This document shows positions 3,227 to 34,459 of a stretch of 40,258 nt of DNA, one piece after another; positions within the stretch are counted from its first letter, which is position 1; every line of letters starts with the position of its first letter. Location of the stretch: the IMG/VR virus record IMGVR_UViG_2651869695_000011, one strand, 5' to 3'. Position numbers and translations under genes: made by a program. Source of the DNA: a virus (lineage: Duplodnaviria > Heunggongvirae > Uroviricota > Caudoviricetes). A model generated the notes under the pieces. The model did no database searches. It was given only the letters and a program-made list of their open reading frames with translations, and was not told where the DNA came from.

Positions 3227-5971
3227 TTAACCTTTAGAAAAAACAGACAGTAACGGAAGTGTAAAAGTCGACACACCAGTATTCATCATGCAGGTTTTAC
3301 CACCTGAGTATCCAGATATGGTTTGCGAAACTGGACTTCCTGTTGTTGGGAAAATGGTGATTTCATCCCCCCCCTTCAATACTCTAACTTTGCCTGTAAC
3401 ATCAACCGATGAACTTGAAACAGACGTGAGAGATCCGTTGGTCATTGTATAAAAGTTTATAGTTCCTGTTGCTGTTCTGCTTACACCACATCCTGATTTT
3501 TGCTTCTGTTTATAGTTAAACAATACCAGCAGGCCAACAGGCATTGACTCAAGCTCAACTGCTGTAGACTGGTAGGTCTTACTGCCGTTTCTCATGTCAG
3601 GAGCCTCATCATCTGGATCAGAAAAATTATACCCAAGAGTTAAATCATTAACCGTGGCATTATTCCCTGTTATTCCTTTGACTTGATTAACACTTAACGG
3701 TATGTAATTAAACCCTGCAAAAAGCGGTGTTAACTTTTCTCTAAATAAAAGGCCTGGTGGGTATACTAACGAAGGTGTACCATCATATGTCACTGAGATA
3801 ATATTAAGTCCCTTTTTAAGGGTTCCAATGCACGTTGTTTGTTTGCCTGTAAATGATGTTAGCCCATTGCTGGCAACTTTACCTGATAGATAAGAAGAGT
3901 TCCTGATGTCATTGAGAATGACATTGAACTGGTTAACACGATCTGATGAAGTATAAGTTGGGTTATATGGCTCAAATAATGTTACAGAGATATCGCTTGT
4001 ATCACTCCATACAAAATACCGACAAATAACATTTTCATTTGAAGGCGTAATCCTTCCCCATCCACCAAGTGCATCAAGATAATCACCTCCACTTAATATC
4101 GAAATTGATGGGTAGTATCTGGTATTTGAAGGGTATCCAATACCAATAAATGAAAGTTGAGTAGTAGGGATTAGGTTCTTATTTTTTACAGCTGTATAAA
4201 CGCGCTCTTTTAATACCTCTTTTGCAGCATAAGCACCGATGTATGCATGTCCTATCGTTGATGGATGGCTCTGGTCAAAGACAGTACCGCCGTCACGTTT
4301 GGCAACATCAGATATAGAGTACGCGCCTATATCTGCATAAGCGTCAGTCGTGGCAATGGACAAATCCAAAAACTCGACCTTTGGGAAAAGGCGTTCGATA
4401 CGCTTCTTAATGGCTGACTCCAGGAAAGCCTTTGGCGCATCGTTATTGTTTACAGTAACAAAGCATATCGGACAACCATATCCCCATGATTTTCTAATCA
4501 ACTTTTCAAACTCATGAAAATACGCTTCAAATCCTATTGTTGGAAGTATTCCATTGTCATTAAAACCAAGGCTTATAAAAAGAACATCAGGAGCTTTTTT
4601 TCCATACGCAGCATTCTGGAAAAATCCATAGTCGAAGTTTTCATAACCCCAACCTGTCGCAAGTGACTTGCCAGACGATCCGCAGTTATATGCTTTAAAA
4701 ATATTATCCGTGCTGTCGGATAGCATATTGAGGCAATCAGTAAAAATTCTGAACCATGAATGCTTACCGCCATTTAAATTATGATTGTAGTTGGTAGAGT
4801 TAAGATTTCCATCGCTACCAGTCGGGTTCGGGGTCCATCCTGAACTATAGGCTCCATCCGTTATAGAATCACCAATGATACCTACATGGCAATCTTCTAT
4901 AGTTGATTGGTAACTCTGCTTATTTGCAAATTTAGCAATTGTTCCAAGAGCAGTAAAATCAGGGCCATTGTTAGATAGCCCAACATCAAAAACATGCTCA
5001 TTACCCCATTTGTCTCTTGTGAGAATTTTACCTTCTCCAAGAAATTTAGTCACATCATCTGACGGTAAAAAATTACACCTGATGGTTACATCTTTTGGGA
5101 TGTAAATCTGACCAGGGAAAGCATAAATTGCACTTCTGTTGTCAGTTGTCGTGTTAATAACGACATTTGGAACATAAAATATTGACGTTGCGTCAGTTCT
5201 ATATTGTCCGTTAACAAGCTCAGATCTGAGAACCGCATCCCCAACACCTCTCCAAGCGCCAGGACCAACACCACCAGTAGTGGTAGGAGTTGATCCTGGA
5301 GGAACTACTTTGGGCAGTGGCCCGTCCCATCTGTAGTATTCGCCGTTGCTTTCCCAGAGAAGAACATCGTTAAGATAGATGATGGTATTACCCAACTCAA
5401 AAGATTTCTTCGTGTTATAGCCATACAATCCATTTTCTAAGGTTTCAATAATGGTGCTAAGTATGGTACTAAATTTTGCATAAAGATCATCAGTATATTT
5501 TTTTGTAGCAGCATCTTGGGGAAGAGATGGATCACGAAGATTTCTAATATAATTTGAAAGCGCGTCATAAAAAATTGCTACGTCATTTGGCTTTCTTAAA
5601 GCCAACTTATCATTTCTTAATGATTGTTGAATGAGCATAGTAAGTTTATCAAACGCATCCTCATGTACCTCAGCGAAGAACTTACCCTGATTACGTAAAT
5701 CCGTTTCCTGAGTAGCTGGTAGTTCTCGTGATATAGATATCTGATGACCGTTAGCCAACGCCTTCGAGAGAATTACATTACCGCCGTTATATCCTCCAGC
5801 CCCGGTAACTGTGTAATCAGTATCAAGAGCCAGCACAGCGATATTTTCGTCAAGGTCAACCACCTGTACTACCAGATCAGATTTATTGAAAACCCTAAAG
5901 GTGTACGGAAATGATGTCGTAACGCCGTTACCTGTGTATTCGTTGTGGTCAACTTCGGTTGAGACCGTCAT
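3227..5971 (-). CDS. Tailspike/tail fibre: T7 gp17-like N-terminal adaptor + SGNH (GDSL) esterase domain + C-terminal beta-rich domain
   Basis: N-terminus YTGNGVTTSFPYTF...DLVV...DYTVTG resembles podovirus fibre head-binding domain; SGNH blocks GIIGDSITDG (block I), ISLGFNDN (block III), DQSHPSTIGH (block V); SD GGAG 8 nt upstream; AT-rich body. Confidence 0.8.
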   Translation of the reverse strand: MTVSTEVDHNEYTGNGVTTSFPYTFRVFNKSDLVVQVVDLDENIAVLALDTDYTVTGAGGYNGGNVILSKALANGHQISISRELPATQETDLRNQGKFFAEVHEDAFDKLTMLIQQSLRNDKLALRKPNDVAIFYDALSNYIRNLRDPSLPQDAATKKYTDDLYAKFSTILSTIIETLENGLYGYNTKKSFELGNTIIYLNDVLLWESNGEYYRWDGPLPKVVPPGSTPTTTGGVGPGAWRGVGDAVLRSELVNGQYRTDATSIFYVPNVVINTTTDNRSAIYAFPGQIYIPKDVTIRCNFLPSDDVTKFLGEGKILTRDKWGNEHVFDVGLSNNGPDFTALGTIAKFANKQSYQSTIEDCHVGIIGDSITDGAYSSGWTPNPTGSDGNLNSTNYNHNLNGGKHSWFRIFTDCLNMLSDSTDNIFKAYNCGSSGKSLATGWGYENFDYGFFQNAAYGKKAPDVLFISLGFNDNGILPTIGFEAYFHEFEKLIRKSWGYGCPICFVTVNNNDAPKAFLESAIKKRIERLFPKVEFLDLSIATTDAYADIGAYSISDVAKRDGGTVFDQSHPSTIGHAYIGAYAAKEVLKERVYTAVKNKNLIPTTQLSFIGIGYPSNTRYYPSISILSGGDYLDALGGWGRITPSNENVICRYFVWSDTSDISVTLFEPYNPTYTSSDRVNQFNVILNDIRNSSYLSGKVASNGLTSFTGKQTTCIGTLKKGLNIISVTYDGTPSLVYPPGLLFREKLTPLFAGFNYIPLSVNQVKGITGNNATVNDLTLGYNFSDPDDEAPDMRNGSKTYQSTAVELESMPVGLLVLFNYKQKQKSGCGVSRTATGTINFYTMTNGSLTSVSSSSVDVTGKVRVLKGGDEITIFPTTGSPVSQTISGYSGGKTCMMNTGVSTFTLPLLSVFSKG

Positions 5972-6024: not shown

Positions 6025-6090
6025 ATTACCTAAAAAACCACATATGGATAGATAACCCATAAATACGAACAGATATTACCTTTCAGGTAA
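6025..6090. promoter_or_regulatory. Bipartite upstream element of the tailspike operon: ATTACC-TAAAAAACCACATATG plus palindrome TTACCTTTCAGGTAA
   Basis: Perfect 6+3+6 palindrome at 6076-6090; AACCACATATG at 6036-6046; same arrangement recurs upstream of portal and early-gene operons. Confidence 0.45.
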
Positions 6091-6424: not shown

Positions 6425-6560
6425 GATTTGAAATTACCAAGAGGAGTGCTTATATTTACCTTTGCGGTAAATTTACATCGCACTCCTCTTGTGCCATAGT
6501 AATCGGGCACTGGCAAAATCCAGTGCCGGGATTGGCGTCCCGAGTTACTAAGTGGCGCAT

Positions 6561-6583
6561 ACCACGCCAGACGTGGTTTTTTT
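6561..6583 (+). terminator. Rho-independent terminator
   Basis: ACCACG-CCAGA-CGTGGT hairpin followed by TTTTTTT. Confidence 0.55.
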
Positions 6584-6739
6584 ATGCGTTAAGCACAGCC
6601 ATATCCGAATTATGGTGGGCTGGGCAGGGGTCCGAAAGGACGCCGGTACCACTTAGGCCGGTACGCCAACCTTGTCCAGTTCACCACCAGTAATTGGCGT
6701 TGCGGTGGTGATTAAAATCACTAAGTGGAGATAACCACC

Positions 6740-22815: not shown

Positions 22816-23112
22816 TCACTCCTGTTCACTGGCCTCTTTGGCCATCTTCAAATACTGTTCAGGGCAATGCGCCATAACGCGCTGAAACAGCTCCAGCGCC
22901 AGATTGCGTTGCCCCTCATTAAATGCCATTGCCATAGCATCCATCGGAGAGATAGCGGAAAACACCCGGCCTTTCTCCAGCACAGACCAGACAACGCGAC
23001 GCCCCTGTTCACTGCTCATGACAAAGCGAATGTCATCAATTTCACGCTGTGCCATGTCACGTTGCTTACGGGCGTTTTCTTCTTTCAGTTGATCGTCTTC
23101 GTAATCTGTCAT
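22816..23112 (-). CDS. Hypothetical head-module protein
   Basis: 98 aa, overlapping stop/start with portal and scaffold genes. Confidence 0.45.
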   Translation of the reverse strand: MTDYEDDQLKEENARKQRDMAQREIDDIRFVMSSEQGRRVVWSVLEKGRVFSAISPMDAMAMAFNEGQRNLALELFQRVMAHCPEQYLKMAKEASEQE

Positions 23113-24788
23113 TGTGATTGCCCACCCTGACCACTAACTGCATTCGCCATAGCTGACAAAACACTCGGATCCGAAGTTTTAGCTTCGCTTAGCGTCTTGG
23201 CACCCTGTGCCGCCGCCATCCCCATCGCCATCATTTGTTGCTGCTGTTGTTGCTGTGCCCGTTGCTGGCGAGCCTGCTCAACCTGTTCCTGCGGAACAAT
23301 GACGGTTGGAGACACTCCAGACATATCAGCGAATGCATCGATCGCCTGATCAACGTTGAGTTTGTCGAGAGCTTCTGGTTTCGCTTGCGCAAGTTGACCA
23401 ATGAAGTTAACCGTGGACGCCAGACTGGACAGGCCGATAGACTTCTGCGCCTGAGCCATGACGGAAATGTATTCGACCTTCAGGGGCATGCCTTCCATCG
23501 CGTCAGGCGGTGGCGGCAACATGTTTTTACGCACCATCATCGAGAAAGCGCGGTCAATGAGAGGATTAAGACATTCGTCGTTCAGACGCTCCAGAACCGG
23601 CCCCAACATCAGAAGTTTTTCTTCTTTCATTTCGATCACCGCTTCAACAGGCATCGAGCGGGTATTGATGTTCTGCAACATCATGAACAGATCGACAAAG
23701 TAGGCGCTGTTAATGATTTGACGAGTGTCCTGAATGTCTGCCACCAAATCTGCTGTACTGGGGTTAACCAGATAAGCAGGCCTGAAGCCATCCTGACCAG
23801 TAATCTGATCGATATACGTGATGTCGCCAGGAAGAAGGGAGGCGCGCTGATTCTTGAGGGAAGTCGGAGCAACCATCGGAGGATTGGTGGCTTTATCAAT
23901 CAACTGCGACTTGCGCTTCTGGAGAAGCTGCAATGCCTTAACAGGTCCAAGCGCCAGCATACCCGGGCATGATGATCCATAAACATCTTCGCCGTTAACT
24001 TCCCAGCGCGGAGCCATAATTGGAAACTCATCGAATCCGGACTCACGCAACAACTTGTCGTTATCGCCACCAACCTCGTAATAAACCGATTTGAATGGCT
24101 TGTTCTTGCTATCCAGCTTCGATGTATCGCGGTCAATGTTCGGATAAACCGAATGCATCACTTCAATCCACTTCTCGTAGGTGCCGCTTTCCCACATGCT
24201 TTTTACGGATTCGCTGACGTTATTTAGTCCGAATTCCTGAACAAGCTGACGAACAGTCATAGAGAACTTGCGAAAACAGGTGTCCACACTGCCACGAGGT
24301 GAGTTAGCCAGGTAGTAACTTCCTATCGGGAATGGCATTGTACGAATGATGTCCTCGTCATCCTCCAGCACCGCCATTGCACCGGTGCTGTATGTGCCGA
24401 GGCTTCCGTATAACTGCGGCAGCGACTGATAGAGATTCGACTTATTGAACATATCGTTCATGCGGTTCTGCACTGCCTCAAGCCACAACTTAACAGGGCC
24501 ATAATCCATCATTTCAGGATCTGGCGTAGCCAGGCGAAACCACGGACGCACGGGGCTTGTGATGCCTGACATCATGCCGCTGGCGAGAGTGCGCGCCGCC
24601 ATAGTCCCAGTCGAATCAATAATGCGTGTATTGCGTCGATCGTTACGGTTGACCTCAGAAGTCAGAAAGCGGGAACCACGCGGGTTGATGTAATCACTCA
24701 ACTCGCGCCAGTGCGGCTCGAACGACTGACGCTCGCTTTCAAGTTGTGCGAACTGTTTGTTCAATCGCTCTTTAGTTGTTTCCGCCAT
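23109..24788 (-). CDS. Portal (head-to-tail connector) protein
   Basis: 559 aa; canonical position after terminase; Gln-rich C-terminal tail as in podovirus connectors; SD GGAG upstream. Confidence 0.8.
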   Translation of the reverse strand: MAETTKERLNKQFAQLESERQSFEPHWRELSDYINPRGSRFLTSEVNRNDRRNTRIIDSTGTMAARTLASGMMSGITSPVRPWFRLATPDPEMMDYGPVKLWLEAVQNRMNDMFNKSNLYQSLPQLYGSLGTYSTGAMAVLEDDEDIIRTMPFPIGSYYLANSPRGSVDTCFRKFSMTVRQLVQEFGLNNVSESVKSMWESGTYEKWIEVMHSVYPNIDRDTSKLDSKNKPFKSVYYEVGGDNDKLLRESGFDEFPIMAPRWEVNGEDVYGSSCPGMLALGPVKALQLLQKRKSQLIDKATNPPMVAPTSLKNQRASLLPGDITYIDQITGQDGFRPAYLVNPSTADLVADIQDTRQIINSAYFVDLFMMLQNINTRSMPVEAVIEMKEEKLLMLGPVLERLNDECLNPLIDRAFSMMVRKNMLPPPPDAMEGMPLKVEYISVMAQAQKSIGLSSLASTVNFIGQLAQAKPEALDKLNVDQAIDAFADMSGVSPTVIVPQEQVEQARQQRAQQQQQQQMMAMGMAAAQGAKTLSEAKTSDPSVLSAMANAVSGQGGQSQ

Positions 24789-24802: not shown

Positions 24803-25009
24803 TTACTGGCCAAGCAGCGTTTTACCGCTGGTATTAGCGGTTGATGTGTCGCCCTGAGAACCGGTAAGCAGCGTAGAACTACGACCAGCAGCAGCGCGAC
24901 GGCGACGAGTTTCTTCGTCGCGGGCATCAACAACGGCGGCATCCTGCTCCTGTGGTGCTGCCTGAACTTCTGGTGTTGCAGGCACTGACGGTGAGCTACC
25001 CATGCACAT
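24803..25009 (-). CDS. Small acidic protein preceding portal
   Basis: 68 aa; translation-initiation region GGAGTCATTGATATG nearly identical to portal TIR GGAGTCATTGAAATG. Confidence 0.4.
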   Translation of the reverse strand: MCMGSSPSVPATPEVQAAPQEQDAAVVDARDEETRRRRAAAGRSSTLLTGSQGDTSTANTSGKTLLGQ

Positions 25010-25033
25010 ATCAATGACTCCGTACGCAATTAA

Positions 25034-25113
25034 ATTATTACCAATTTAACCACATATGATTTATTTATCGTAGATAGTTGACATTTAACGCATGAATTAT
25101 TACCTTTAAGGTA
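25034..25113. promoter_or_regulatory. Bipartite upstream element of the head operon / tRNA promoter region: ATTACC-AATTTAACCACATATG, TTGACA, palindrome TTACCTTTAAGGTAA
   Basis: AACCACATATG at 25047-25057; TTGACA at 25077-25082; palindrome at 25099-25113. Confidence 0.45.
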
Positions 25114-25436
25114 AGCAAAGAGTTCATTCCGGTTACTAACCTGACTGGCTTGTCGTTAAATTGAACAGGTGGAGTGAGCTTTTATTTTGAGCAGTACGGC
25201 GTATGGCACATGCGCCGATAGCGGTCTGGATACGTTTAAGGGGCACCCTCCCTTGCTCGGGCAAACGAACCAGCTAGCCGGAATGTGCAAGTCGAGCGGT
25301 TTTATTCCGCGCACGGGGATTCACCATCCCGGCGATTCGGTGTGACGCCTCGGAAGAGACGAGGGTACAACGATGAGAGCATTTATGGAGCCGCGACAAA
25401 GTGTGGCGCCTTAACAGGCTAAGTGCTCTCAGCGTT

Positions 25437-25513
25437 GTGGCATTAGCTCAGTTGGACAGAGCAACCGCCTTCTAAGCGGTTGGTCGCAGGTTCGAATCCT
25501 GCATGCCGCGCCA
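25437..25513 (+). tRNA. tRNA-Arg (anticodon UCU)
   Basis: Cloverleaf by hand: acceptor GTGGCAT/ATGCCGC (one U-G pair), D-arm GCTC-AGTTGGACA-GAGC, anticodon arm ACCGC-CTTCTAA-GCGGT, T-arm GCAGG-TTCGAAT-CCTGC, discriminator G, encoded CCA; close to enterobacterial argU. Confidence 0.85.
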
Positions 25514-25556
25514 GAATCACGCCTAAGGACCGTGATGCCAGAAGTTCCAGGGGCTT

Positions 25557-25598
25557 GGCGGTGATGGTTTCCCTTGAAGGACTATCACCGCCCTTTTT
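25557..25598 (+). terminator. Rho-independent terminator after tRNA
   Basis: GGCGGTGAT...ATCACCGCC 9-bp stem followed by CTTTTT. Confidence 0.6.
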
Positions 25599-25676
25599 AC
25601 AGCAGGACGCCATTGCGATGACTTCATGCTGTAAACCCGTACAGCCACGGAAGGCATAACTCATTGCTTCCAGTTC

Positions 25677-25700
25677 GCCCGGTTCGCCGGGCATTTTTTT
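25677..25700 (+). terminator. Second hairpin/terminator immediately before the SD of the moron gene
   Basis: GCCCGG-TTCG-CCGGGC followed by ATTTTTTT, ending 1 nt before SD AAGGTGAG. Confidence 0.55.
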
Positions 25701-25711
25701 AAGGTGAGATT

Positions 25712-26068
25712 ATGAGCGACCAGCAAATCGAAAAAGAAATCGTTGAGAAAGGCAAAACCGCTCCGCGAGTTACGCCTCAATATATCGAAAGCATCATTCT
25801 TGAAGAGCATTTCTTTACTGCTTATGACGGCATTCGTGCTGCCAATATGGGCGTTGGCGATTCATGGACAGCGCATAAATCTACAGACCTCCTGACTTTC
25901 TGCGTATTGGTACTGAAGAATGGCTTCACCGTCACCGGAGAGAGTGCCTGTGCAAGTCCGGAAAACTTTGATGCGGAAATTGGTCGGAAGATTGCCCGGC
26001 AGAATGCTGTAAACAAAATCTGGATGCTCGAAGGTTACTTGCTGAAGCAGAAGTTAAGCGAGCAATAA
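25712..26068 (+). CDS. Hypothetical moron protein (118 aa) between tRNA and terminase
   Basis: SD AAGGTGAG 3 nt upstream of ATG; opposite strand to flanking late genes; bracketed by terminators. Confidence 0.55.
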   Translation: MSDQQIEKEIVEKGKTAPRVTPQYIESIILEEHFFTAYDGIRAANMGVGDSWTAHKSTDLLTFCVLVLKNGFTVTGESACASPENFDAEIGRKIARQNAVNKIWMLEGYLLKQKLSEQ

Positions 26069-26072
26069 CACC

Positions 26073-26084
26073 GTGACATGTCAC
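26073..26084. repeat. 12-bp perfect palindrome GTGACATGTCAC (copy 2 of 3)
   Basis: Exact 12-mer 5 nt after the moron gene stop, preceded by ATAACACC as in copy 3. Confidence 0.6.
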
Positions 26085-26088
26085 AAAC

Positions 26089-26116
26089 AGCCAGCCTATG
26101 AGCTGGCTTTGTTTTA
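26089..26116 (+). terminator. Rho-independent terminator of the moron gene
   Basis: AGCCAGC-CTATGA-GCTGGCT followed by TTGTTTT. Confidence 0.6.
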
Positions 26117-26158
26117 TCCTCACCAGAGGATATCAACGACATTATCCCCACCAGCGGA

Positions 26159-27634
26159 TTAAGCATAGGGATCGTAATCTGTGATGGCCTTGCCTTGCTG
26201 GTTCTGCTGACCGGGAATTCGCAGACGCTTCGACACAGGGAACGCAAACGTCAGCAGTAGCGCATCGCCTTTACCAGGAGAACGCCCAAGTCGCTCTTTG
26301 ATATCTTCCTTCGGTTCGATAACGATTTTACCGTCCACTCGAACTTTGTACTCTGCTGCCGACAGGTCGTCCGCTGTTTCCTGGTCATCAAGCATGCCGC
26401 CCAGCCTCAGCCATGTCTTGCATGAGTTGAACATCTCCCCACGCTTGTTGAGCATCTGCGGGTCAGTAGACGCGCCACCGAACGGAACAAGTTGCCATGT
26501 ACGACCCCAGCCGTCACCGATTGACTTCAGACCAGTTCCGTAACCGAAGTCGATGAACACTGCGTCAGCCTGGTACTGGTCTTCAAAGTCAGCGATACGC
26601 TTCGCCATAATCAGATCGTCAGTGGTCTTGTTGCCGGTCCACAGCACCTTACTATGCAGCCCCTGCCGCAGGTATATCACAGCGTCATCAACACCGGAGT
26701 ATGCCGGGTCAACGCCGATTATCACCGGAGCATGTGCCACCTGCGCAGCGGTTATCACCCGTTTCATTGCCTCGTCAGTAAGTCCGGTAGGGATAAACTG
26801 CAATTCAGATGCATCAGGGAATATTCCGCGCACACGGATTTTAACGAAGTCACTGTCTTCCCCGTAGTCATCAACCCATTTCTGCAACTGCTGTTTGTTG
26901 GTGCCTTCCACCGTCCGGCTGTCAATCTGCGCAGTTTTCCAGCGGTGTTTATACTTGCGGAAACATTCACGGAATCGCCCGGTATTACGCGTCGGGTTTC
27001 CGAACGCCACCCAAATAATCTCAGTGTCTTCGTCCGTAAGCGCACCCTCGGCAACTTCCCACACCAGATCCGCAATGTTCGACGCTTCATCGAATACCAC
27101 GATGATGCGTTTGCGCTCGTTGTGTAGTCCTGCGAATGCCTCAGTGTTGTGCTCAGACCAGGGGATTGCGTCAGCTCGCCACCGCTTGTCGTGTCCAGGA
27201 TCATTGCTGTACATCGCGGTAGCGGTGCAGGTGAACCAGTCTTTCGTGATAGCAAGGTTCGACCACTTGATAATTTCAGGCCAGGTCTTCGTTCGTAGCT
27301 GGTTGTCGGTGTTGGCGGTCACCACGACCTTACAATCCTCGCAAGTGGACATGCCCCAGTTGATCAGCATTGAGATGAATGCGGATTTACCAATACCGTG
27401 ACCCGAAGCACGTGCCAGCATAAGCGGCTGATAGCGCGTCTCTGGATTCTGCAGGTGATCACGTATCTCTCGGAACGCATCAGCCTGCCACTGACGTGGA
27501 CCTGTGGCATGTGCTAATTCAGTCCCCTCTTCCCCCCACGGGAACGCATAGAGGGCATAGCCAAGCGGATCGTGAGTGAACCCTGCAATATCCTCGATCA
27601 ACTGCTCTTCAGGAGATAACGCTGTATCTGTCAC
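26159..27634 (-). CDS. Terminase large subunit
   Basis: Walker A ARASGHGIGKS and Walker B IIVVFDEAS in N-terminal ATPase; acidic nuclease-domain residues in C-half; overlaps small-subunit stop. Confidence 0.9.
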   Translation of the reverse strand: MTDTALSPEEQLIEDIAGFTHDPLGYALYAFPWGEEGTELAHATGPRQWQADAFREIRDHLQNPETRYQPLMLARASGHGIGKSAFISMLINWGMSTCEDCKVVVTANTDNQLRTKTWPEIIKWSNLAITKDWFTCTATAMYSNDPGHDKRWRADAIPWSEHNTEAFAGLHNERKRIIVVFDEASNIADLVWEVAEGALTDEDTEIIWVAFGNPTRNTGRFRECFRKYKHRWKTAQIDSRTVEGTNKQQLQKWVDDYGEDSDFVKIRVRGIFPDASELQFIPTGLTDEAMKRVITAAQVAHAPVIIGVDPAYSGVDDAVIYLRQGLHSKVLWTGNKTTDDLIMAKRIADFEDQYQADAVFIDFGYGTGLKSIGDGWGRTWQLVPFGGASTDPQMLNKRGEMFNSCKTWLRLGGMLDDQETADDLSAAEYKVRVDGKIVIEPKEDIKERLGRSPGKGDALLLTFAFPVSKRLRIPGQQNQQGKAITDYDPYA

Positions 27635-34396: not shown

Positions 34397-34459
34397 TCAC
34401 CCATAAGGTAACAAAAATCAAGGATAGTTACCTATGGGGTGCATTTACCTGTTGGGTAA
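34397..34459. promoter_or_regulatory. O_R-like tripartite operator between cro-like and repressor genes
   Basis: TCACCCATAAGGTAA (34397-34411), TTACCTATGGGGTGC (34428-34442), TTACCTGTTGGGTAA (34445-34459); one overlaps the candidate cro promoter. Confidence 0.6.

Follow-up and report, generated by a model that had tools for sequence, protein, structure and literature searches.

The species 1 and 2 RNAs of phage T4 are stable RNAs from phage transfer RNA (tRNA) operons, and GOLLD and ROOL are large phage RNAs that are found beside tRNAs. Phage-encoded tRNA-Arg genes are known as argN and argO of Shiga toxin (Stx) phages; 3′ETS-leuZ is a small RNA (sRNA) that originates from a tRNA trailer. With put, it was established that an RNA alone can antiterminate and that it stays bound without a tether (PMC9378689). 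Here we describe a unit at positions 25,034–26,116 of a 40,258-nucleotide (nt) stretch of viral DNA (IMG/VR record IMGVR_UViG_2651869695_000011, in full length called the window), which a preliminary description had read as a moron built around a tRNA-Arg(UCU) gene with an ordinary long leader. The features listed in that description were all found where it had placed them. Judged by covariation, however, the "leader" is a conserved pseudoknotted RNA of its own, of about 245 nt in total, and it occurs without any tRNA in the majority of its genomic contexts. The unit contains, in this order, the structured RNA, tRNA-Arg(UCU), a trailer hairpin with terminator T1, a seed-bearing sRNA-like module that extends to terminator T2, and a cargo gene.

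The structured RNA consists of a core of about 195 nt, formed by helices P1–P5 and a pseudoknot, which is closed by a long helix P6. All features of the unit given here lie on the + strand unless indicated otherwise. The core (25192..25386) is recognized by covariance model R1 with 153 bits. Helix P1 spans 25197–25217, P2 is formed by 25221–25228 with 25271–25278, P3 by 25291–25293 with 25331–25333, P4 by 25316–25319 with 25327–25330, and P5 by 25348–25352 with 25360–25364. The P4 loop UCACC forms the pseudoknot with a downstream GGUG (25322–25325 with 25339–25342), and an invariant 17-mer, UAGCCGGAAUGUGCAAG, occupies 25275–25291. In the closing helix P6 (25369..25436) the sequence AACGAUGAGAGCA pairs with UGCUCUCAGCGUU (strands 25369–25381 and 25424–25436); the helix encloses a variable insert and ends at the first base of the tRNA. 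Preceding the core, the minimum-free-energy fold gives a long 5′ hairpin, P0 (AAAGAGUUCAUUCC ... GGUGGAGUGAGCUUUU, 25117..25183), which is similar in sequence to the P6-type helices (3′-domain) of copies L013 and L008.

The helices and the pseudoknot were derived from covarying column pairs of a 36-sequence alignment, in which 97.8% of the cells hold standard pairs, as compared to 28–47% if the partners are slid by 1–3 columns. Eleven pairs changed on both sides (71 cells), and the observed values were reached in none of 500 shuffles. When model R1 was used to align 58 diverse copies of the core, 98.2% of the cells were paired and 112 cells were compensatory, and these values, too, were reached in none of 500 shuffles. 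In the pseudoknot, a C–G pair is replaced by A–U in five sequences. The strands of P6 covary as well: strand pairs were compiled from 44 variants, and the pairing energy is −20.2 kcal/mol for cognate as compared to −14.2 kcal/mol for non-cognate strands. In the strength of this covariation support the RNA equals accepted classes of riboswitches or ribozymes. An alternative proposed by RNAalifold, in which the invariant GCACAU pairs over a long range with AUGUGC in competition with P1, is neither confirmed nor excluded since both sides are invariant. A protein-coding leader was considered and rejected, since all three mod-3 classes are represented among the lengths of the variable segments, and since every one of the six reading frames is interrupted by stops in 15 of the 58 copies. 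The open reading frames (ORFs) annotated over the structured RNA in phiV10, mEp460 and mEp390 lie on differing strands. No family of Rfam 15 matched the structured core, or the tRNA-like module described below, at E ≤ 10 in window positions 24900–26200 and in mEp460. The Rfam searches, which covered the window and mEp460 at gathering as well as permissive thresholds, gave, beyond the tRNA, matches to isrK and C4 only, both elsewhere in the window.

Copies of the core are widespread. Lambdoid phages (cdtI, mEp460, Stx2c phages, Ayreon, 2H10) have non-coding DNA that shares ca. 82% identity with positions 25196–25436, and positions 25196–25358 are ca. 79% identical to DNA of P1, P7, D6 and SJ46; more distant copies are present in phages of Klebsiella, Enterobacter and Stenotrophomonas. 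The settings of the core are thus the pL leader of lambdoid phages, the ban operon of phage P1, and the epsilon15-like phages. With blastn the core was found in 1830 of 5426 complete E. coli genomes, at 2460 places and with up to four places per genome. P1-type phage-plasmids account for the 546 places that are located on plasmids, and the Prokaryotic Genome Annotation Pipeline (PGAP) has placed no annotation under the match at any of the 2460 places. An exact scan with a 19-mer that contains UAGCCGGAAUGUGCAAG returned 24 species genomes, mostly Enterobacteriaceae, or 23 after removal of a match in an Oscillospiraceae contig (L020) which the model does not recognize and which is due to chance. 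The 17-mer itself occurs in at least 120 viral contigs, and both scans together yielded 131 distinct cores in 57 clusters at 88% identity among the matches listed. One contig (L052) harbors two cores in tandem, at 4784–4962 (−) and 3977–4157 (−). The exact 17-mer is absent from the second of these, a divergent copy that scores 125 bits; exact-word scans therefore understate the diversity of the family.

The tRNA that follows P6 is intact, as had been reported: it is 77 nt long (25437..25513), has anticodon UCU and an encoded CCA, and is according to ARAGORN the sole tRNA of the window. Rfam model RF00005 matches it over the full length with 69.4 bits (gathering score 29), and GCCA is encoded at 25510–25513. 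Identity elements for arginyl-tRNA synthetase are A20 and C35. The D-loop is AGUUGGACA, with an A at position 20 by our own numbering, and C35 is present. With a full cloverleaf, A20, C35 and an encoded CCA, the tRNA-Arg looks functional from its sequence.

To place this tRNA in the family, 150 distinct core contexts were scanned for tRNAs. In 28 of them a tRNA-Arg(UCU) begins exactly at the base after P6, in 18 P1-like contexts a tRNA-Ile(CAU) ends 14 nt upstream, one context has a tRNA further downstream, and 103 have none. These 103 contexts speak against a plain leader for the 320-nt segment. In copies without tRNA the slot after ...GUU is filled by a module that starts with GUGGUGAAU-GCGCAGGCUGAUGCGC and ends with GCCGGAGAUCAGCACCGG-(C/U)CACCAC-AAC(A), and some variants possess a canonical GGUUCGAUUCC arm. 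Folding of single sequences gave a cloverleaf-like shape for 6 of 7 variants of this tRNA-like module: an acceptor-like stem of 6 bp encloses a D-like hairpin, middle arms that are variable, and a T-like hairpin which immediately precedes the 3′ strand, and a tail of 4 nt follows. The cloverleaf rests on these single-sequence folds only, the automatic search for acceptor-like stems being too noisy for a covariation test. In Enterobacter phage Tyrion the tRNA-like module is located exactly at the position of the tRNA-Arg in the window, and the tRNA-Arg is therefore one filling of a tRNA-shaped slot.

Some individual copies carry further tRNA-like features. The P6 inserts of L129 (3680–3770) and L038 hold tRNA-like pieces with GGUUCGAUUCC or GGUUCAAUUCC arms that are not called by ARAGORN. 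The tRNA-like variant of L041 has an anticodon-arm-like hairpin with a 7-nt loop, CUUUUAA, similar to the Lys UUU anticodon loop, which hints that this module could be a mimic of tRNA-Lys. The T-like hairpin GCCGGAGAUCAGCACCGG of L005 (2845–2862) resembles a hairpin of E. coli rydB, with 13.7 bits and an E-value of 4.2, which is probably chance.

Downstream of the tRNA, the conserved trailer hairpin AAUCACG-CCUAAGGAC-CGUGAU (25515..25536) is found, which follows both tRNAs and tRNA-like modules in many unrelated contexts. It is succeeded by T1 (25557..25598), an intrinsic terminator with a long stem of 14 pairs and a subsequent CUUUUU. The frame of T1, UUGGCGGU...ACCGCCCUUUU, has been conserved in copies of both the epsilon15-like and the lambdoid type, with stems that covary; a simple terminator finder missed it in the lambdoid copies because of the long loop. 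The sRNA-like module (25599..25700) is composed of a conserved 5′ part, the single-stranded seed 13-mer CAUUGCUUCCAGU (25662–25674), and, directly 3′ of the seed, terminator T2 (25677–25692) with a U run to 25700. A terminator scan gave four hairpin-plus-T-run sites in the region, as compared to 1.7 ± 1.4 in shuffled sequences. The scan includes both terminators of the preliminary description, at 25557–25592 and 25677–25692, of which the second has a T run to 25700 and ends just before the Shine-Dalgarno sequence of the next gene. It had been suggested that the second terminator may attenuate this gene. The terminator is indeed present, but the terminators are conserved parts of RNA modules and not attenuators only. 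A third terminator-like hairpin, T3 (26089..26108), ends the unit at 50 nt from the stop codon of the convergent terL gene; the annotation of phiV10 gives this hairpin as a rho-independent terminator.

The seed CAUUGCUUCCAGU is identical to the seed of RyhB in the Rfam consensus. It does not vary across genera: of 32 contexts, 31 have the 11-mer UUGCUUCCAGU unchanged, also where the upstream part differs, and the stem of T2 covaries (GCCCGG/CCGGGC, GCCCAC/GUGGGC, GCCCGC/GCGGGC). With the RyhB model RF00057 the module scored 18.1 bits (E 2.3), which is below the gathering score of 55. The module may be a phage sRNA that mimics RyhB, which we regard as a lead and not as a finding.

The cargo gene (25701..26068) comprises a Shine-Dalgarno sequence, AAGGTGAG, at 25701–25708 and a coding region for 118 amino acids at 25712–26068. 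Its product, named "Gp49 family protein" by PGAP, matches Pfam PF13876 over the whole profile (1–82) with 118.6 bits (cut-off 27, E 1.6e-34). PF13876 is the Acb4 family of sponges that counteract the cyclic-oligonucleotide-based antiphage signaling system (CBASS) (2024 preprint, PMC11722364). The match to the solved structure of SPO1 Acb4 (9e4w) is weak (E 0.006), and the 118-amino acid protein is a candidate anti-CBASS sponge. In Klebsiella phage ST512-KPC3phi13.3 the same slot is occupied by a Tad2-like gene (L003 5697–6218; PF11195, E 4e-26). Both families are sponges of nucleotide signals, Acb4 being a tetramer that sequesters cyclic nucleotides, and a BLASTP comparison of the Acb4-family protein with the Tad2-like cargo showed them to be unrelated. 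In other relatives, the slot encodes proteins without a Pfam match. In L129, of which terL is 80% identical to that of the window, a cargo gene is missing altogether: the non-coding unit is complete up to T2, which abuts the stop of the convergent terL. The RNAs thus count as products by themselves, with the protein gene as an optional addition. The earlier assignment of the gene as the moron gene of the tRNA unit is replaced by that of a candidate Acb4-family sponge gene, which is exchangeable and dispensable cargo.

Transcription of the unit would start at a sigma-70 promoter (25078..25106) that we predict from reading of the sequence: TTGACA at 25078–25083, as described before for a non-coding leader of about 320 nt, a 17-nt spacer, and TACCTT at 25101–25106. 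The TTGACA element is located 359 nt upstream of the tRNA, and the distance from the predicted start site near 25113 is about 320 nt. The arrangement TTGACA-N17-TACCYT is kept in epsilon15, Tyrion and L129. A simple consensus promoter scan did not call the promoter at 25078–25106 because its −10 element matches at three of six positions only. An operator-like perfect palindrome without strand assignment, TTACCTTTAAGGTAA (25100..25114), overlaps both the −10 element and the predicted start site. The operator pattern occurs 16 times in the window with at most three mismatches, as compared to 1.15 expected occurrences; copies of TTACCTTTAAGGTAA are found at 34397 and 34445, between a cro-like ORF and a repressor ORF, and other copies adjoin the isrK/C4 antirepressor region. 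The homologous site of epsilon15 carries the GenBank annotation "repressor, lysogeny". From the position of the palindrome over the −10 element, silence in the lysogen and expression early in the lytic cycle are predicted, and the unit is thus probably repressor-controlled and early, not a moron that is expressed in the lysogen. Palindromes of the type TTACC-N5-GGTAA (25100–25114, 32076, 32138, 34397, 34445 and others) are 14-fold enriched and scattered as would be expected for operators of a multi-site repressor, and those at 6076 and 6456 flank the isrK/C4 antirepressor region.

The other settings of the structured RNA are similar in this respect. In mEp460 its start is preceded, at a distance of about 40 nt, by a pL-type promoter that has two operators, and it is located just beyond the terminator of a cI-like gene. 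The same layout is found in mEp390 and in Stenotrophomonas phage BUCT708, the structured RNA being located 35–40 nt past the promoter in all three phages and T1 downstream of it. In phage P1, the structured RNA is part of the C1-controlled ban operon. The epsilon15-like, lambdoid pL and P1 ban settings would all place it in a repressor-controlled early transcript, which argues against expression in the lysogen. Expression in the lysogen is the hallmark of a moron. Of the proposed self-contained moron, what stands is the predicted promoter of its own, terminators T1–T3, and the insertion between the portal and gp3-like genes on one side and terL on the other; the operator over the −10 element argues against its expression in the lysogen.

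Considering these data together, we favor, with about even confidence, the explanation that the locus is a mostly non-coding and probably early, repressor-controlled unit which carries several non-coding RNAs, and not a tRNA moron. The architecture of the unit, the structure of the RNA, its distribution and the gene families are results of the analysis; for the timing, RNA processing and RNA functions we infer the following course. Upon infection or induction, the repressor would leave the operator over the −10 element and RNA polymerase would make an early precursor containing several non-coding RNAs. RNase P would cut at the 5′ end of the tRNA and thereby release the structured RNA with its 3′ end sealed in P6; in P1-like phages, processing of tRNA-Ile would set the 5′ side of the structured RNA. 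The tRNA-Arg would add AGA-decoding capacity, and partial read-through of T1 and T2 would give the sRNA-like RNA and the sponge protein. The structured RNA itself is most likely a free-standing, protein-binding RNA of early lytic growth, with RNA polymerase as one candidate target.

Several observations weigh against this explanation. The −10 element of the predicted promoter is weak. The 3′ tail AAC(A) of many tRNA-like modules can pair with the GUU just upstream, which could block cleavage by RNase P. In phage P1 the core stands alone, without P6, tRNA-like module or T1, so that the modules can be separated from each other. In epsilon15 (L006 2809–2931), a deletion that stretches from P2 into the 3′ half of T1 has removed the larger part of the core together with the tRNA slot, leaving the promoter, operator, P0, P1, T2 and cargo gene. 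At least one viable phage can thus do without the core. Finally, the first place in pL operons fits a cis-acting role equally well.

Such a cis-acting role is the strongest of the alternatives, although we consider it clearly less probable than a free-standing RNA. The core would be a put-like processive antiterminator: the nascent RNA would bind its own polymerase and cause read-through of T1, T2 and later terminators, so that the downstream RNAs and genes are expressed from early-promoter transcripts only. In no fewer than three unrelated lambdoid lineages, the RNA comes first behind a repressor-controlled early promoter, in the position of nutL or putL. Terminators follow downstream, and the next gene has no recognizable promoter in front of it. 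An N gene is neither annotated nor was one found at the start of these early-left operons, and put is a precedent for an RNA-only mechanism (PMC9378689). Against this, neither sequence nor model similarity to the put RNAs of HK022 or HK639 was detected, and the structured RNA has three times the size of put. There is one copy per phage, with none on the pR side of lambdoid phages. In the early-left operons of mEp460 and mEp390 no further strong terminators were found, in P1 the core is followed by ban with no intervening terminator, in L129 there is nothing downstream for which antitermination would be needed, and epsilon15 keeps T2 and the cargo gene without the core.

Somewhat more tentative is a broader proposal, in which the structured RNA is the founding member of a very common, hitherto unannotated class of phage RNAs and acts together with the attached tRNA or tRNA mimic in an early operon for counter-defence or host takeover. 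Possible roles within this proposal are those of a decoy or shield against tRNA-targeting nucleases, or of an RNA that reprograms RNA polymerase. The RNA could then be delivered beside the Acb4 and Tad2 sponges and a RyhB-mimicking sRNA.

The original interpretation, a moron that supplies a decoder of the rare codons AGA and AGG and is equipped with an ordinary leader, an attenuating second terminator and a co-oriented moron gene, now appears unlikely, even though part of it agrees with the data. The tRNA is intact, the unit is located between late genes of the other strand, and counting of codons showed that the use of AGA and AGG by the phage is raised, as that interpretation supposed. The 49 long ORFs of the window contain 6.0 AGA and 5.2 AGG per 1000 codons. 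Typical values for E. coli are about 2 AGA and 1 AGG per 1000 codons, and the phage frequencies are two- to three-fold above such general host figures. These codons are concentrated in the tailspike-like gene (ORF 3227–5971, with 16 AGA and 4 AGG among 29 Arg codons) and in some early genes; the capsid, portal and terL genes contain almost none, and three flanking host genes contain none at all. Codon supply by the tRNA-Arg therefore remains plausible. What argues against the moron as a whole is that its leader is a covarying structured RNA which is tRNA-free in most contexts, that a repressor operator overlaps the −10 element, that the tRNA is interchangeable with non-decoding tRNA-like modules, and that the cargo is a candidate anti-defence sponge gene which can be absent.

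Even less probable is a riboswitch-like leader in which the core senses a ligand or factor and sets the efficiency of termination at T1. The highly conserved junction nucleotides and the pseudoknot are reminiscent of aptamers, a conserved terminator is located downstream, and the invariant GCACAU could alternatively pair with AUGUGC, competing with P1. However, the distance between the core and T1 is 200 to 400 nt and accommodates a complete tRNA or tRNA-like module, phage P1 has no terminator, and the downstream genes have no common function. Very improbable is a reading in which a DNA-level element, for instance a boundary of recombination or of a module, or else a degenerate protein gene has been conserved instead of an RNA: the differing positions in mosaic phage genomes and the ORFs annotated over the element in some records would fit, but changes that are compensatory or compatible with G-U pairing are specific to one strand, the strand of the annotated ORFs differs from record to record, and the segment lengths and six-frame stops described above oppose a coding origin.

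The window represents an epsilon15/phiV10-like (Uetakevirus) prophage. In an E. coli locus that is 98.6% identical to the window the prophage adjoins guaA, and this integration point agrees with the earlier statement that the unit is not the attachment site. Also the insertion of the unit between terL and portal, on the opposite strand, was found as described: the portal gene (23109–24788), a gp3-like ORF of 68 amino acids (24803–25009) and terL (26159–27634) are all on the − strand. Both isrK (window 6507–6583) and the C4 antisense RNA (6608–6691) exceed their Rfam gathering scores, and the epsilon15-like prophage therefore has an antirepressor control region of the P1/P7 immI type. ORFs antisense to the tRNA/RNA cassette are annotated or can be predicted in several copies, at window 25443–25694 (−), at L002 3744–3995 (−), and at L005 2443–2811 (−) and 2853–2996 (−). 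These ORFs, of which phiV10p04 and mEp460 gp36 and gp37 are examples, are probably spurious. An ORF-based survey of the orientation of neighboring genes was discarded, being confounded by spurious antisense ORFs over the structured RNA.

Of the parts of this unit, the tRNA and the Acb4 family were already known, the tRNA from annotation in related records (a single tRNA is reported for phiV10-type phages, and it is mentioned for vB_EcoP_ZX5) and the family from publication. A description of the structured RNA, of the fixed junction with a tRNA or tRNA-like slot or of the composite early unit was not found in Rfam 15 and the searchable, incomplete literature. The RNA is present in a third of the complete E. 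coli genomes, in P1-type phage-plasmids and in many phages of enterobacteria, and annotation pipelines leave it blank or cover it with spurious ORFs. The predicted sponge of the window belongs to the same PF13876 family as Acb4 of SPO1, to which it is only distantly related, and the "Gp49 family" gene beside tRNA-Arg should be read as a candidate anti-CBASS sponge. The seed module shares with RyhB the 13-nt seed directly 5′ of an intrinsic terminator, but lacks the first RyhB hairpin and scores far below the gathering threshold. Like 3′ETS-leuZ, it is situated in the trailer of a tRNA transcript. Similar to argN and argO of the Stx phages, the window and phiV10-type phages have a tRNA-Arg(UCU) gene in a temperate coliphage that uses more AGA and AGG than its host. 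Unlike argN and argO, the tRNA-Arg of the window is the filling of one slot in a larger RNA cassette, where tRNA mimics that do not decode can take its place; the phiV10-type tRNA-Arg is thus to be read as one interchangeable module of this cassette.

The T4 species RNAs, GOLLD and ROOL are likewise structured phage RNAs that adjoin or are co-transcribed with tRNAs, and in the family described here tRNA-like pieces are even nested in the variable region (L038, L129). GOLLD and ROOL differ in that their Rfam models give no match at E ≤ 10, and in that the window RNA is smaller, belongs to temperate phages of enterobacteria and has a fixed junction with the tRNA slot. The put RNAs (putL and putR of HK022, putL of HK639) are, like the window RNA, phage RNAs that occupy the very start of an early-left operon under repressor control, ahead of terminators, and the lambdoid phages concerned have no recognized N gene. 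Terminator read-through by put depends on the zinc-binding domain of the β′ subunit. Model R1 gave no match in HK022 or HK639, and the score of a local alignment to HK639 putL (26) was not significantly different from that of shuffled sequences (24.7 ± 4.5). Whereas put is about 70 nt long (126 nt as annotated in HK639) and has two stem-loops, the window RNA has about 245 nt, five helices, a pseudoknot and a closing helix. It further differs from put in its single copy, in its coupling to a tRNA or a tRNA-like module, and in its occurrence also outside pL. The RNA heads early phage transcripts, and in epsilon15-like phages it adjoins anti-defence genes. Its function could reveal a second RNA-only control of early transcription that is unrelated to put, or an RNA component of phage counter-defence.

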